Source: Lama glama
Taxonomy: Eukaryota
DNA: 64,000 bases
Direction: 5' to 3'
NCBI GenBank assembly: GCA_028534125.1
Contig: CM052816.1
Coordinates: 8,744,001-8,808,000, forward strand
The number at the start of each line of letters is the position of its first letter. Positions within the stretch are counted from its first letter, which is position 1. Of the stretch, positions 13,745 to 56,747 are shown piece after piece. The notes under the pieces are model-generated. The model was not told where the DNA came from. It worked only from the letters and a program-made list of their open reading frames with translations, and searched no databases. Position numbers and translations under genes: made by a program.

Positions 13745-13843
13745 ATGATCAGTAGAATTGAATATGTGCATACAAAGAATTTTATACACAGAGACATTAA
13801 ACCAGATAACTTCCTAATGGGTATTGGGCGTCACTGTAATAAG
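13745..13843 (+). CDS. CSNK1A1: CK1-alpha exon 4 (99 nt): [33 protein letters not shown], catalytic loop
   Basis: ctcttttttccag acceptor, AAG|GTTAGT donor, HRDIKPDN catalytic motif, in frame with exon 3. Missed by the ORF track. Confidence 0.98.
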
Positions 13844-13986
13844 GTTAGTCAAATGTTCTTTGCATGACAGCACAAAGAGTAAAAAACTTGAAGAATTGCT
13901 TTGGTGAACTTTTCAGTCTTTATAAAGTCATAGTAAGTTGAATTTGCTATTGGTAATTGGTTTAAAAGATTGTGCTAAAAGGATAA

Positions 13987-14037
13987 TCTATTAACTTAGT
14001 AACTTGAAATACTCTATTAACTTAGTAACTTGAAATA
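13987..14037. repeat. Perfect tandem duplication, 25-nt copies with period 26
   Basis: tctattaacttagtaacttgaaata at 13987-14011 and 14013-14037. Confidence 0.95.
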
Positions 14038-16237
14038 AATTCTCTCCAACTTAACCAAGATTAGTTATCTATGTGGAAATATAAAATTCCAAGGGCTTTA
14101 TAATGAAATGTAAATCATGTATATCATTTAACTATTCAAAAATTGTATCTTTTTCATTCATTCAAATGTCAAAAAAAAAAAAAACCCATGAACTTTTCTT
14201 CCTGAATGCTAAAAATTAGATTTTAACCTTTGTCTCTGAAGTGTGGGTTTTTGTAATACATGTGCTTGTGCCAGTGTGGAAACCACTGACATATCTGTCA
14301 CCATGGCGTTAACATTTGCTGACTGAGCATGGTTGATAATGAGAATTCTTCAGTCCTTGGATTTGTGTATTCAAAAGGATAATTTGGGGCGTGCTTCAAA
14401 AGTAGTTTACAGTTTTTATTTGGATGCCAAGTTGGGTGAGTTCTCCACCCCTCTTCTCCCCTTTTTAAGGAAAATAGAGACAAGTGAAATGAATATTCAT
14501 ACATTATTGAGGGGAGGTCCCAGAATGATTGAATTTATTGGGTCATTGGGTTTTAGCTAGTGACGTATGATTGCAGTTAGAAACTAATTATGTTGAATTT
14601 TTTCTGCAATGATTAGTTTTACTGAGTGAATTGCTTTACCGATTTCAATGTTGAGCTCGGGCAGACAGGCAGCATTGGCAATGCACTAAGCATGTTGTGA
14701 TCTGATGATCTGATAGAAATTTGTCAACTTCAGGACAACTTGGGGGCTTTTTGGGGTTTTTTGTGTTTTTTTGTTTTGTTTTTGGAAGGATTATTCCCAT
14801 GTGTTTTATTAAACCATTAGGGAATGTTTGGTGTTTTTAGGTCTAGCTATAAATGTTTACCTTTGTTTGCCTGTATGAATGCCAACTTAGAGCCATTACC
14901 ATTAGAACTGGTGTTATTTGTTTATGTGTGAGACATTAATGTTGTTCTGACCAAGTTTTAGGAAATCTAAGGGGTTTTTTTGTTGTTGAAAGCTTAGCTT
15001 TAAATAATAAAAGGTGTTTAAATCTACATATAACCTTTCTTGCCATTCCCAAATTGCATCTTTTTGTTTTTAATATTATGTGGCTTCTCTTTTTGAAGCA
15101 TCCAGGTTCTTAATTTTCATTGTATAACCTGGTAATTTAATTGAAAAAAAAATTACTGGTCTTAATTTTGGGGGGCACTTTTGTTAGCTGACCCTAATAT
15201 TTTGACCATTTCCCAAGCCCTTTTCCTTCCCATTTTCTTTCTGCTAAAGATCCATTATCATGTGATCCGTGTTCTGCATGTTGACATTGCAGTACATGGT
15301 TTTTGTTTTAAATTTAATGATGGCCTAGATAATTCCTCTTTGCTCCCCCCTCCTTTAAAAATAGCTTATTAATCACATAGTTGTGTTAGAAGTCCAAATT
15401 GCTTAGTGATATGTAAACCTTTATAGAATCTTGTGTCCTCTTTTAGAGATAGTAAAGAATATTGTGAAGCTGCTTTGCTGCCATACAGATTCAGAGAGAC
15501 CCAGTGGTAAAAATGCAGTGTTTACCTAAGGTTCAGATTCTAAATGTTGTTCTTGAACATTTTGGATTAGTGTTTGTTTATGTAGTTGGTTTTTAGTGTT
15601 TTCTGTATTGTAGTTTAAAAAATGCCAATTGTATGAGACTGGATTCTTGGTAGCTCGTTCCAGTAGTTTTCTGTTTGTGGGAAAGAGTGGAGGGGGTGCT
15701 TTTGAGGTTGATTTTTAAAGTCAAATTTCTTATTTGGAAAATTGTTCTGAATTTGATATTTAGGAGTAGTCACTCCAGTCTTAGTGAATTTACTCATCTC
15801 TTCCAGTAATCAGCCCTGCATGCTTATGAAAATAAATTTTAAGGTGACTAAATGCCTTCTACCTCTTCCTTACTGAAGATTTTTTCCCTTGTACAATATT
15901 TTTTTGGGGGAAGGGCAGATTGTGGTACCAAAGATTACAGATCCAAATTCCCCAGTTTTGATTAAAAAATTAAAGAGCCAAATGTCACCATTGCTATCCC
16001 TGTTTCAGGCAGTGACACAATATAGTGGCATTAAAAACCTGAGTAAAGAATTCAAATGTTCTTAAGCATGTGATTCTTATTTGGAAAACTGAGAAGCTAC
16101 AGTGCTTGGTGGAAGAAGGATGGCATTTGGCTACCCTGTTCTTTCTCTAATGCCTCGGTGTTGCCTGTCTGCGCCGGCCATTGTTGCAATGTAAGCAATA
16201 CTGTTTGATGCACTGCCACCCTCTATTGTCTGTTTAG

Positions 16238-16321
16238 TGTTTAGAATCTCCAGTGGGGAAGAGGAAAAGAAGCATGACTGTTAGTACTTCTCAGGACCCA
16301 TCTTTCTCAGGATTAAACCAG
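16238..16321 (+). CDS. CSNK1A1: Alternative 'L' cassette exon (84 nt, 28 aa): CLESPVGKRKRSMTVSTSQDPSFSGLNQ, containing the basic NLS
   Basis: tgtttag acceptor, weak donor CAG|GTCTGA, frame-preserving; translation matches the known CK1-alpha-L insert. Confidence 0.95.
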
Positions 16322-19300
16322 GTCTGAAACTGTCTCCTATTCCAACCTCAATCCCAAATTCATGTGCTTTTCTTTTTTATTGTTTTATTTTGATTATTTT
16401 TGTTTTGTTTTAATTCTGGAGAATGTAGATCTTACTCAAGCACCTCTTACGTTGGCATTATTCAGACATACTTGGCAAACATATAACATTACTAAGATGT
16501 TTCTTTGTGGCTTTTGCTTAAAGCTTCCAAAGTTTAGAGAAAACCTAAATGAAAACAGGGTTATGTTTAGATCTCTAACATCCACATGAAGAAATATGTT
16601 GGTGTATTGAAATTCTTTACCTAATGGTAAACTTGAAGTAGACTGTTTAGTTTTTTAAAATGTATTTGGAGTTGCAGAACTTAATGCATGAAATTATATA
16701 CATCTAAATTCAGTTGCATCAGTGCTGTGTGATGAATGTATTCTGCCTCAGCTATCTTCCCCTTCCCTAATGATCTTCAGGTAAGTGTAGATCAGATTTC
16801 AGATCTAGTGTTTCCAGAATTGATTTACCTCAATGTGAATTCTCTCACCTTCAACCAAGTGGCAAAAAATGCTTAAAGAGCATTATATGTTCTGGAACTG
16901 GAATACATTGTATTCTAATATATATCTAATAATGGTAATATAATTGAAGCACTTATCAATTCCCATTAGTAGCACATAAGATATATTAAACAAATGCATA
17001 ACCTGATTTAGTGTTAGCAGGCTAGATAAACATTTCAATAATTTTCTAATTTTTTTTAATGTAAGCAGAACTCTTCACATTTTATTTTAGTTTTATAGGA
17101 TTTATATAGCTTTATTACTATATTAATTTCCAGATAAGGGAAAATAGCTTTAAAAAAACACATTTAGGTTTGTAAATTTTGAAGCTCCTAAACAAAAGAA
17201 TTTTTATCATTCAATTTAGTATATACTGAGGAAGTATTGGCATGAGCAATCAAAGATGCATTTGATGTGTGAGCATACTTTATAGTTCCTTAATTAAATC
17301 ACATACATCATCTGGGTAATCATTTCATCCATTTCTATACTGCCCAGTATTATTTCAAGGACTACATTCTCCTGCTGCTAGAAAGGTTTCAGAAATTCAA
17401 TTTTATTTTTATTCACAAATACCAACTGTGGTGCCTAGATCTTGGTTGGGCAGAGAGGTGTAACATGGTGGGTAATTAGGTACACTGTAAAGCATCTGTA
17501 CTGCCCTGTTTCTACTTATCCATACATTTGCACGTTTTTACTTAAAATATAAGTATAACATAATCATTTAATAATTTCCATAAAATTGTATTGAATTGGT
17601 CATACTCTTTACATATAGTTTATCTGGATTATGAGAAAAAGTGACCTTGTGAATTTTTTGGAAGGACAGGGAAATGTGACCCCTGGTTAAGAGAAAAACT
17701 GCTTCAAATGCCAAAAACTAAAATTGGCAGTAATGTTTCTGAAGTGCACCTCTGATAAGTAGAGTTATCTCAGTATAGCCAACGTTAACTCATTTCTACA
17801 TGCCTTTGAAGAATATGCTGCATTCTTTAAAACAGGCACAAATTTTGCTTAGAACATGTAGTTAAAATTCATAGAAAAGCAACTTGACATACCAAAGAGA
17901 TTAGACTTCTCTTTGCATCTGCAAATCTATAAGAATATATTGTTTTACTACTTATTGAATACTGATTTTTCCTTGTTTGGTTTTACCTTTGCATATTTGT
18001 AGCTGTTTGCTTATATCCTTGGTATTACATGGTTTCATTACACTTTCATTATATGTTTTATTTATTTTAAATTCAAAATGTAAAGAGTTACTAAGGAAGC
18101 CTGATAGGTGCTAGAAGATAATGTACTATCAAGAGATTTAAAATTTTTTTATTTTAAGTAGTTTTCCTTTTGGTTGTTTGCTCTTAAAATGGATACCTTT
18201 GTTTAGCAGTAGCATTACTTTTCCTGGCTTATTTTCAGTTTTTATAAGGAAATTTAAAATTTGTTTGCTTTGTTGTTTTTTGCTTTGATATTAAAAATTG
18301 AGATACATAAGGAAAATAGTGTCTACATTTTTTATTTTCTTAATAAGTTAGATTTCTTCCTTTAGAGTTGTATAAGAAAAGAACTCTCTAGTGAACACCT
18401 AATCTTTATAAAGTAGTCTTTTAATTGTGATAAAATGATTACTGAGTTGCAAATGGAGCTACTAAAAGTAGCTTTAGACATGAATGTTACCATCAGACAT
18501 AATCATGTCAAAGTTGTTCCTATTATTTTTCTCCTCCATTTTAGGGGTAGTAAAGGAAGCAATCCTAGAAAATAACCCTTAGAGAAGAGTCTATGTCCGA
18601 ATCACTTTTCATTTATAACCCACATAATTTCTTAAGGTTCATTTTAAAGTACCATAACGCTGGATGTCCTTTTATATTTGTTTTCCTTTGTTCGCTTTTC
18701 AGTGTGAATCTGTTGAACTTAGTCATACTTTTTTTTGTTTCACCTAAGAGTGTATTTTGCTCATTTTAATATTTGTATACTGAGCTAATTTTCATACCAA
18801 AAGAAACAAGAGTATGAGCTTTATTTCTCTTAGTGTTTTATAACATTTACTTTCATATTTCTATTTTATAATAACTCAGTTACTTAAGAAGTGGGTTTTT
18901 TAAAAGTGAGTTTAATCATACTAGAGAGCTCTCATCCAGTTACATTTTACTAAAACTTTAGTCTTCATTCTTTTGTAGTAGACCAAGAGAAATAAGTATT
19001 TCATTGTTACCATGGTTTATAGAAGCTCAAACCTCAGTCTTTGCCATTCAACAGATAACTAAGACAGTATCTTAGTTATTTTTCATCCTCCTAAAAGAAG
19101 CACTTGGTCATATCTTTTTCAGCTAAATCAGTAACTTGCTTAATTTATTTTTTGATGTAAACCCTAAGTCTAGGTGATCAGGTTTCCCAGCGCATCTCAG
19201 ACTGTAACCTTCGGCATAAGGGACCTTGTGTCGCCCTAATGAGAAGAACTACAAAATTTAGGTATAACTAGAAAAAAATAGTGTAGGGCTACATAGTATA

Positions 19301-20409
19301 AGGGCACAGAGACCTGCTTTGCTTGATAAACTTTATAGATATAACCCATAGTAAGTGATTAATGAAAAAGTCTAAAATTTTAAGTTAAGCTTATTTTGCT
19401 TTAGAAAGTAGGTAAATATGAATATATTTTGGGTTTGGGGTAGTTTTTTGTTGTTTTGTTTTGTTTTGGCTTATTTTGTGGGTTTTTTTGTTGTTTTGTT
19501 TAAGAATACTTTTGTTTGGTTTTTTTCTTCCTCTTGTAAAGGTTTTAATCATGGAGAGTAAACCTGAATTGCTTTTAACAATTAGCTATATTAAAAATGA
19601 GTACCTTATTCCCTGTGTACCATATAAATGAGATATAGCTCTAAGTATTATTTTGTTCTAAAATGCTAGTTTGGTGTTTTTGTTTGTTTATCTAGTTTGG
19701 TTTTTAGTTAGCTCATTTAAACTGTTGTAAGCCACTTGATTTAAATAAATACTGAAGTACTTTTTTTAAGATTTTAGATCAACTTGTTATGTTTTCTAGA
19801 AGTTTAAACTTACCATGTGCATAACTAAATGTCAGTTGGAAATGAAATGCATGCTTATTTTATAAATGCTTATTTTTAGTAAATAAAAATCTTGGTTTTG
19901 TTGTCAGTATCAAACTTCCAGAGTTGTCTTACTTTAGATAACCAACATTCTGTTTGCATACTAGGGAGTGGCCCTTGTTAAATGGAAGAGTTCCAGATAG
20001 TTTTTCATATTTAGTTTTTAAAATCCCATGCTTGTTTACTAGTAGTAACAGGATGTCAGCTTCATTATGGCACACAGCACACCTGTCAACAACTCTGCTA
20101 TTCAAGCCATGCATACATTTCCCCACTACTTTAGAAATTCTGAAGACAGGCTCCTGAGTGTGTAATGAACTGAGCCTATGAAATTGTTCCGCTGACAAGG
20201 ATCAACCATTTAACTTTTTTTATCTTGCTTTTTTGATACGGACTAGTAAAAGACGATTGGAGTGTTGAGTTTGTTCATTATCTGTTCTACTTATGATGTT
20301 TTATTTTGATACAATTGAACAAAGTAGAATAGAGATGCCATTTAATGAATAAGAAGCAGTTTAATTGAACAAGGTTGGAAACCTAATGTCTCTTTATTTT
20401 CTTTTAAAG

Positions 20410-20549
20410 TTATTCCTTATTGATTTTGGTTTGGCCAAAAAGTACAGAGACAACAGGACTAGGCAACACATACCTTACAGAGAAGATAAAAATCTCACTG
20501 GCACTGCTCGATATGCTAGCATCAATGCACATCTTGGTATTGAACAGAG
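20410..20549 (+). CDS. CSNK1A1: CK1-alpha exon 5 (140 nt): [46 protein letters not shown](S)
   Basis: AAG acceptor ending 20409, GAG|GTGAGT donor, DFG motif and CK1-specific SIN motif. Confidence 0.98.
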
Positions 20550-34170: not shown

Positions 34171-34670
34171 NNNNNNNNNNNNNNNNNNNNNNNNNNNNNN
34201 NNNNNNNNNNNNNNNNNNNNNNNNNNNNNNNNNNNNNNNNNNNNNNNNNNNNNNNNNNNNNNNNNNNNNNNNNNNNNNNNNNNNNNNNNNNNNNNNNNNN
34301 NNNNNNNNNNNNNNNNNNNNNNNNNNNNNNNNNNNNNNNNNNNNNNNNNNNNNNNNNNNNNNNNNNNNNNNNNNNNNNNNNNNNNNNNNNNNNNNNNNNN
34401 NNNNNNNNNNNNNNNNNNNNNNNNNNNNNNNNNNNNNNNNNNNNNNNNNNNNNNNNNNNNNNNNNNNNNNNNNNNNNNNNNNNNNNNNNNNNNNNNNNNN
34501 NNNNNNNNNNNNNNNNNNNNNNNNNNNNNNNNNNNNNNNNNNNNNNNNNNNNNNNNNNNNNNNNNNNNNNNNNNNNNNNNNNNNNNNNNNNNNNNNNNNN
34601 NNNNNNNNNNNNNNNNNNNNNNNNNNNNNNNNNNNNNNNNNNNNNNNNNNNNNNNNNNNNNNNNNNNNNN
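34171..34670. other. Assembly gap (500 N), probably a false gap
   Basis: 34139-34170 and 34671-34702 are the identical 32-mer cttaaaatggttggcttcttgtttgcaagcca. Confidence 0.95.
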
Positions 34671-39096: not shown

Positions 39097-39238
39097 AAAT
39101 ATATATATATTTTTTTGTTTTGGGTGGAGGTAATTAGGTTTACTTATTTGCTTATTTGTTTTAATGGAGGTACTGGGGATTGAACCCAGGACCTGCGTGC
39201 TAAGCGTGCACTCTACCAATAAGCTATATGCTCCTCCC
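39097..39238 (-). mobile_element. Vic-1 type SINE with 19-bp TSD
   Basis: Same head as the other copies; TSD tgagaatcatggcctttta (39078-39096) / tgagaatcataacctttta (39239-39257). Confidence 0.9.
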
Positions 39239-43630: not shown

Positions 43631-43773
43631 GGGGCAGGTATAGCTCAGTGCTAGAGTGTGTGCTTAGCATGCAACAGGTCCTGGGGTCCATCCTCAGTAC
43701 CTCCATTAAAATTAAGTAAATAAAGCTAATTAACTCCCCCTCACCCCAAAAAAGGCAAAAAAAAAAAAAAAAA
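43631..43773 (+). mobile_element. Vic-1 type SINE
   Basis: ggggcaggtatagctcagtgctagagtgtgtgcttagcatgc head with a poly(A) tail. Confidence 0.9.
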
Positions 43774-56616: not shown

Positions 56617-56747
56617 TTTTCCATCTTTTTTTGGAAGGGAGGAAGTAATTATTTATTTACTTATTTTAACGGAGGTACTGGGGATTGAACCCAGGACCTT
56701 GTGCATGCTAAGCACACACTCTACCACTTGAGCTATGCACTCCCACT
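56617..56747 (-). mobile_element. Vic-1 type SINE with 14-bp TSD
   Basis: tRNA-like head on the minus strand; TSD gtgggagaattttt (56603-56616) / gtgggcgaattttt (56748-56761). Confidence 0.9.

Follow-up and report, generated by a model that had tools for sequence, protein, structure and literature searches.

A candidate long-range RNA stem in the intron preceding the L exon of the llama CK1α gene

The L exon and its 3' splice site

The stretch of DNA analysed here covers 64,000 nucleotides (nt) of Lama glama (GenBank assembly GCA_028534125.1, contig CM052816.1, positions 8,744,001 to 8,808,000 of the forward strand) and is called the window below. Its + strand carries the gene of casein kinase 1 alpha (CK1α). 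We analysed two complementary segments that lie about 1.5 kb apart in one intron of this gene, directly upstream of the L exon, and whose pairing is credible as a candidate long-range splicing element. The exons of this part of the gene and the signals at the L acceptor are as follows.

13784 to 13843, + strand: end of the upstream constitutive exon (...GIGRHCNK), read from the sequence
16145 to 16151, + strand: CUCUAAU, a branch-point-like motif, with an AG (16194-95) between it and the acceptor
16204 to 16210, + strand: UUUGAUG, a better-placed candidate branch point (A16208) within an AG-free zone; putative assignment
16213 to 16237, + strand: polypyrimidine tract and acceptor AG of the L exon, read from the sequence
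16238 to 16321, + strand: L exon, 84 nt, translated into 28 amino acids that include the nuclear localisation signal PVGKRKR
20410 to 20499, + strand: start of the downstream constitutive exon (LFLIDFG...), from its translation

The intron preceding the L exon spans 13844-16237 (2.39 kb) and opens with GTTAGT at 13844. The exon at 20410 gave casein kinase I isoform alpha as its top solved-structure matches (E 1.8e-15, residues 153-182 of a 337-amino-acid chain). The L insert of CK1α and its nuclear localisation signal are described in the available text of PMC11255964, according to which the L-containing variants are nuclear and do not rescue Wnt/β-catenin regulation. In the same intron, a 26-nt unit is tandemly duplicated at 13983-14034, the two copies being 96% alike.

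A sequence-only reading of the window had pointed to CUCUAAU at 16145-16151 as the branch-point-like motif of the L exon, and had suggested that the duplex might act by masking it. The motif was found where that reading placed it. Between 16140 and 16237, AG dinucleotides occur only at 16194-95 and at the acceptor (16236), leaving an AG-free zone of 16196-16235. CUCUAAU is located upstream of the AG at 16194-95 and so falls outside this zone. The motif UUUGAUG falls inside it and is followed by the pyrimidine tract; its A16208 lies 18 nt beyond the downstream end of the extended 3' arm of the duplex and 29 nt away from the acceptor G (16237). UUUGAUG fits the yUnAy branch-point rule. The branch point of the L exon is thus likely to be A16208, downstream of the 3' arm, and not CUCUAAU. 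Judged from these positions, the stem probably ends about 18 nt upstream of the branch point and does not cover it, which leaves the masking proposal weak. A 5'-splice-site-like GUAAGC was also seen at 16190-16195, 43-48 nt upstream of the L acceptor and inside the outer region of the 3' arm; it contains the AG at 16194-95.

A duplex between two single-copy intronic arms

The two arms and the loop between them have the following positions.

14661 to 14678, + strand: 5' arm, core, read from the sequence; 18 gapless pairs verified
16155 to 16172, + strand: 3' arm, core, read from the sequence; 18 gapless pairs verified
14642 to 14680, + strand: 5' arm, extended form, as delimited by RNAduplex
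16151 to 16190, + strand: 3' arm, extended form, as delimited by RNAduplex
14681 to 16150, + strand: loop closed by the stem, about 1.47 kb, single copy in the genome save for a 42-nt T/G-rich stretch

Direct reading of the letters bore out the duplex as the sequence-only reading had described it, including its coordinates. The core 14661-14678/16155-16172 contains 18 bp without a gap, 14 of them Watson-Crick and four G-U (pairs 12, 15, 16 and 18), the first 11 all being Watson-Crick. Both extensions named in that reading were present as well: outward, CGG (14658-60) pairs with CCG (16174-76) across a bulged G16173, and inward, GGCA (14677-80) pairs with UGCC (16151-54). The core 18-mers gave -31.1 kcal/mol with RNAduplex and -35.2 as a gapless stacking sum. 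Inclusion of the neighbouring pairs gave 25 bp and -41.3 kcal/mol for 14655-14680/16151-16178 (26x28 nt), and the extended duplex 14642-14680/16151-16190 reached 35 bp (30 Watson-Crick, five G-U) and -48.1 kcal/mol. Both arms lie inside the intron 13844-16237. The core of the 3' arm ends 60 nt short of the acceptor of the PVGKRKR-encoding exon, as had been noted before, and the extended 3' arm spans 47-86 nt from it.

We folded positions 13846-16340 (2495 nt). In the minimum-energy structure 16 of the 18 core pairs were formed, and the first 15 core pairs had a pair probability of at least 0.968. The outer pairs followed with probabilities of 0.86-0.90 for 16174-78 (the CGG/CCG and GC/GC extension) and 0.4-0.73 for 16179-90. 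Opening the arms in a ±150-nt context cost 11.2 and 11.6 kcal/mol, and the net energy was still about -18.5. As judged by this model, the stem dominates the equilibrium fold of the intron in silico.

The sequence-only reading had also proposed to compare the duplex energy with that of shuffled intron sequence. As nulls we used dinucleotide shuffles of the whole intron, of 100-nt blocks and of 40-nt blocks, the block shuffles keeping the local composition. The best gapless helix in intron shuffles had a mean of -23.5 (standard deviation 2.5), against the observed -35.2, a value reached in 1/250 whole-intron, 0/250 100-nt-block and 0/182 40-nt-block shuffles (Gumbel P ~1e-3). When duplexes were extended around the six best helices, the observed -48.1 was reached in none of 727 shuffles (mean -28.6, standard deviation 3.3, minimum -40.8). 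The second-best real helix of the intron, at -23.2, was level with the shuffle mean, and the remainder of the intron behaved like the null. By stacking and by extended energy the duplex thus stood as an outlier; by a plain pair score it was no more than mildly unusual, as 8 of 300 shuffles reached the observed score. These results indicated that chance is unlikely at the level of the intron, roughly 1e-3, and that the outcome depends on the statistic used.

Chance complementarity would mean that two GC-rich patches exist here for other reasons, for example as protein-binding splicing elements near a regulated exon, and that the stem itself is not selected. Composition-keeping block shuffles never reached the helix, the extended form lies 7 kcal/mol past the best of the 727 shuffles, and the helix is a lone outlier in an intron that is otherwise like the null; all three findings argue against this explanation, which has the pair score on its side together with the other statistics given below. 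We consider it unlikely, and the structure is probably not a product of chance.

How far the duplex extends was examined with the core held fixed. The outer extension of 12, 20 or 40 nt was matched by 127, 12 and 22 of 1000 shuffles, respectively; the inner extension of the same lengths was matched by 387, 813 and 505 of 1000 and was not significant. A larger form of 64 bp, 14625-14710/16122-16202, at -59.6 kcal/mol, was rejected: shuffled arms averaged -44.8 and went as low as -66.0, and the inner flanks had no excess pairing. The real feature is the core with a modest outward extension, and the 64-bp form is inflation. Random real pairs of 100x100 nt had a mean RNAduplex energy of -28.4 and a minimum of -53.6 (n=2500).

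A second pairing near the exon, between intron positions 15856-15890 and exon positions 16239-16275 (-34.5), was likewise set aside, as it falls in the range of shuffled introns. The segment 15856-15890 is pyrimidine-rich and can form a 14-bp helix plus flanks with the 5' portion of the L exon, which is rich in purines.

The composition of the arms differs from that of their surroundings, as the sequence-only reading had observed. Their G+C content is 53% and 58%, against 33-34% in the surrounding stretch, and they retain CpGs: the CpG observed/expected ratio of the intron is 0.14, and four of its ten CpGs fall inside the 76 nt of the arms, where 0.78 would be expected given how depleted of CpG the intron is (Poisson P = 0.008 in a post hoc test). 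Pairing is stronger on the sense than on the antisense strand, by 9 kcal/mol (extended form -48.1 vs -39.0, core -31.1 vs -22.1). Of the five transition-type differences in the 35-bp duplex, all give G-U and none A·C when read on the sense strand; this count carries a bias, since sense-strand folding served to define the duplex.

The earlier statement that the arms are not a pair of inverted repeat elements held within the reach of a BLAST-type search. In the 2.35-Gb assembly neither arm had a match other than itself, and the complete 2.39-kb intron had one further genome match, of 42 nt; a short interspersed element (SINE) used as a positive control gave 2888 first-look candidates. By this search the arms belong to no multi-copy family, unlike those of an inverted repeat-element pair. 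No RNA family was found at gathering score in the region with Rfam, whose three matches in the window were all tRNA-like and all elsewhere. The arm pair was absent from the 25 longest of 74 inverted repeats in a repeat finder, because this program counts Watson-Crick matches only. Exact strings of the arms had no match in metagenome and genome contigs, and a degenerate pattern of the L exon had none in metagenome, prokaryote genome and viral contigs, so that these collections yielded no orthologue. The intron 13844-16237 is free of detectable multi-copy sequence although the neighbouring SINE has thousands of copies, which may hint at constraint.

A BLAST-type genome search is blind to very old, diverged repeat families, and this leaves room for another origin of the arms. 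They could be the relic of an event at the DNA level, either an inverted duplication that arose locally long ago or two pieces of one ancient repeat, no longer recognisable, that point in opposite directions, in which case the RNA may pair and have no role in L splicing. The complementarity runs in register past the core and decays outward, as in a decayed inverted repeat. Old repeats can also make such helices: in 200 kb of neighbouring upstream sequence (spread <=2.5 kb), 18 helices had -35.2 or better, several of which presumably resemble cores of ancient MIR-type repeats in inverted orientation. All 18 occurred where G+C was at least 45%, however, and 40 kb of neighbouring sequence at 38-39% G+C contained no helix below -29.6. 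The single-copy status of the arms and of the intron, set against the thousands of candidates for the SINE control, the G-U-only differences with their biased count and the retained CpGs also speak against a relic. Taken together, this origin appears somewhat unlikely, and it is the strongest of the competing explanations.

When all helices of the window with a spread <=5 kb were ranked, the helix came fifth, behind two from one inverted SINE pair and two in the GC-rich 48-62 kb. In the AT-rich 1-47 kb just three anti-diagonals reached -35.2, the helix among them, and only the inverted SINE pair was stronger. This tRNA-derived pair, at 39158-39233 and 43634-43712, about 4.5 kb apart, forms the strongest helices of the window (-40.9 and -38.1, arms 39158-39220/43650-43712), and Rfam scores each copy as tRNA; it is this element that has the 2888 first-look candidates in the genome. 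The GC-rich region (50-57% G+C, 48-62 kb) lies beyond the kinase gene and contains a tRNA-Ala (AGC) at 56670-56744 on the - strand (ARAGORN call, Rfam 42.2 bits), which is either a gene or the head of a SINE. A run of 500 N at 34171-34670 is possibly an assembly gap.

A possible role of the stem in L exon splicing

Two further elements bear on what the stem might do.

14690 to 14694, + strand: GCAUG, candidate RBFOX-type site from a motif match, in the loop, 10 nt past the 5' arm
17445 to 17474, + strand: putative second partner for the 3' arm, in the downstream intron; resembles the 5' arm, single copy

GCAUG occurs in the loop at 14690, 15276, 15818 and 16066. The intron upstream of the L exon contains six copies, three of which read UGCAUG; shuffles predict 1.9, and a count of six was reached by 30 of 2000. 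The GCAUG density of this intron is 3.6x that of the gene body. One more copy lies in the L exon and three lie in the downstream intron 16322-20409, where base composition predicts 1.8. The copy at 14690 is preceded by A and not by U (AGCAUG), and it is partly paired in a small predicted hairpin (14681-84/14690-93). Judged by motif and position, the GCAUG beside the 5' arm and the enrichment in the intron fit a bridging of upstream regulators to the exon. Just inside the loop, past the 5' arm and this GCAUG, GATCTGAT occurs twice in tandem as a short direct repeat at 14697-14715.

The 3' arm could also pair with 17445-17474, forming 25 bp (19 Watson-Crick, six G-U) at -32.8 kcal/mol, against -41.3 with the 5' arm. 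None of 183 downstream-intron shuffles reached this pairing (Gumbel P 0.006, post hoc test). Going by the positions of the two segments, such a pairing would loop out the L exon.

We propose that a long-range stem tunes the use of the 3' splice site of the L exon. This is a tentative reading that falls a little short of probable, and it would work as follows. The stem would form within the CK1α pre-mRNA, confined to the 2.39-kb intron that separates the ...HCNK exon from the L exon. Transcription would produce the 5' arm (14642-14680) first; after a further 1.5 kb or so the 3' arm (16151-16190) would emerge, pair with it and close the loop of about 1.47 kb, with the base of the stem positioned some 18 nt upstream of the probable branch point A16208. 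The 3' splice site might then be affected in three ways. The effective length of the intron would drop from about 2.4 kb to about 0.85 kb; the GCAUG region by the 5' arm would be brought within about 90 nt of the L exon as an 'RNA bridge'; and the 3' arm would be kept occupied, so that it could not pair with the weaker downstream look-alike at 17445-17474 that would loop the exon out. Overall, stem formation might favour L inclusion and hence the nuclear isoform of the kinase, which is a guess, its direction being the least certain part.

A bolder version of this proposal, which we regard as improbable, is a toggle. Pairing of the 3' arm with the upstream arm (14642-14680) would keep the L exon in play, pairing with 17445-17474 would loop it out, and the balance, perhaps governed by proteins bound to the neighbouring GCAUG sites or by the speed of transcription, would decide the share of CK1α that carries the nuclear localisation signal. 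If the toggle were true, the ratio of nuclear to cytoplasmic CK1α, a central kinase of the Wnt and p53 pathways, would be under the control of a conserved RNA switch. With or without a toggle, a defined pair of 20-40-nt elements would offer a direct handle on the control of L inclusion, through which the ratio of nuclear to cytoplasmic kinase could be shifted. If the stem is not conserved, it would be one more strong but idle intronic helix.

The double-stranded RNA might instead serve another purpose: as a substrate of adenosine-to-inosine (A-to-I) editing, as a platform for double-stranded-RNA-binding proteins, or in back-splicing of the L exon through 16151-16178/17445-17474. A 35-bp imperfect duplex is within the size range used by editing enzymes, the pairing with 17445-17474 does flank the L exon, and, in the available text of PMC8052449, a published catalogue of paired intronic regions, editing sites are strongly enriched in pairs of <=-30 kcal/mol. 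The duplex contains no coding position, however, and the main stem lies inside one intron and flanks no exon. We judge such a purpose very improbable.

Several observations weigh against a splicing role of the stem, and some of them favour chance. In plain pair-score local alignment the observed score was 59, against a shuffle mean of 46.0 (standard deviation 5.3), which is the statistic that 8/300 shuffles reached. The RNAduplex energy of the 100x100-nt regions around the arms (-59.6) is unremarkable, shuffles of the arms matching such long energies easily (mean -44.8, minimum -66.0, n=2500). For the outer flanks taken alone, RNAduplex energies as good occurred in 89, 97 and 175 of 1500 shuffles at lengths of 20, 40 and 60 nt, which is not significant, and for the inner flanks of the same lengths in 931, 805 and 1234 of 1500. 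The duplex was, moreover, picked out of 64 kb, and the survey behind it covered very many such stretches. Scaling the intron P of ~1e-3 to the AT-rich 47 kb (~82x the pair space, spread <=5 kb), we estimate that ~0.08 such helices would be expected by chance per AT-rich gene body of like size. The nearby pairing of 15856-15890 with the exon looks strong at -34.5 and yet is within the shuffle range. The alternative partner was tested post hoc, and a downstream-intron partner of the 5' arm itself was not significant, as 10 of 183 shuffles matched it. Equilibrium folding of 2.5 kb is an unreliable guide to structure in vivo. In the available text of PMC8052449, the strongest catalogue pairs are depleted in the 75 nt next to intron ends, and the 3' arm here lies 47-86 nt from the acceptor. 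Finally, the sequence and the calculations show that the arms are complementary beyond chance expectation, single copy and thermodynamically dominant in silico; that the stem forms in vivo, is conserved or affects splicing, and in which direction, is inferred.

Comparison with known long-range RNA structures

In the literature on the CK1α gene we found no work on the control of L exon inclusion, and none joining this gene with long-range RNA structure, conserved complementary regions, RIC-seq (sequencing of RNA conformation in situ) or intronic base pairing in alternative splicing. Among the papers that name the gene alongside RBFOX and exon inclusion, none concerns the L exon. The gene is absent from the case tables of PMC8052449 (297 and 1136 rows) in the available text; the full catalogue was outside this comparison and may list the pair without comment.

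The closest known class is that of pairs of conserved complementary regions (PCCRs). According to the available text of PMC8052449, both regions of a PCCR are intronic, belong to the same gene, lie <=10 kb apart in conserved intronic sequence and pair over >=10 nt at <=-15 kcal/mol with a helix of >=5 bp. The two arms described here are likewise intronic, in one gene and 1.5 kb apart, and their 18-bp gapless helix at -31.1 kcal/mol (extended -48.1) exceeds these bounds of length and energy next to a regulated cassette exon. By its energy the stem would fall in the strongest class of the human catalogue (group IV, <=-30 kcal/mol), as defined in the same text. Conservation of the arms, however, defines PCCRs, whereas the present stem is known from the llama sequence.

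RNA bridges, by which RBFOX or QKI sites far from a regulated exon are brought to it, are presented as case studies in the available text of PMC8052449. Here, too, the distal arm has a GCAUG 10 nt away, which pairing of the arms would bring to about 90 nt upstream of the exon, and the intron as a whole is enriched in this motif. In contrast to such bridges, the nearest motif is AGCAUG and not UGCAUG, it is partly paired in a predicted hairpin, and it is a candidate site from its motif alone.

In ATE1, competing long-range structures choose between splice outcomes, according to the available text of PMC7797038. The arrangement here would be similar in that one element, the 3' arm, would have two mutually exclusive partners, one upstream in the intron (-41.3) and one downstream beyond the exon (-32.8), the latter looping the exon out. 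It differs in that a single cassette exon is concerned rather than mutually exclusive exons, and in that the statistical support of the second pairing is post hoc only.

Long-range complementarity within a transcript is also provided by intronic inverted SINE pairs, and the window itself contains a tRNA-derived pair of this kind; unlike these, the arms of the present stem are single copy and match no RNA family. Seen against these systems, the stem is a new candidate of a known kind, a long-range intronic pairing near a regulated exon.

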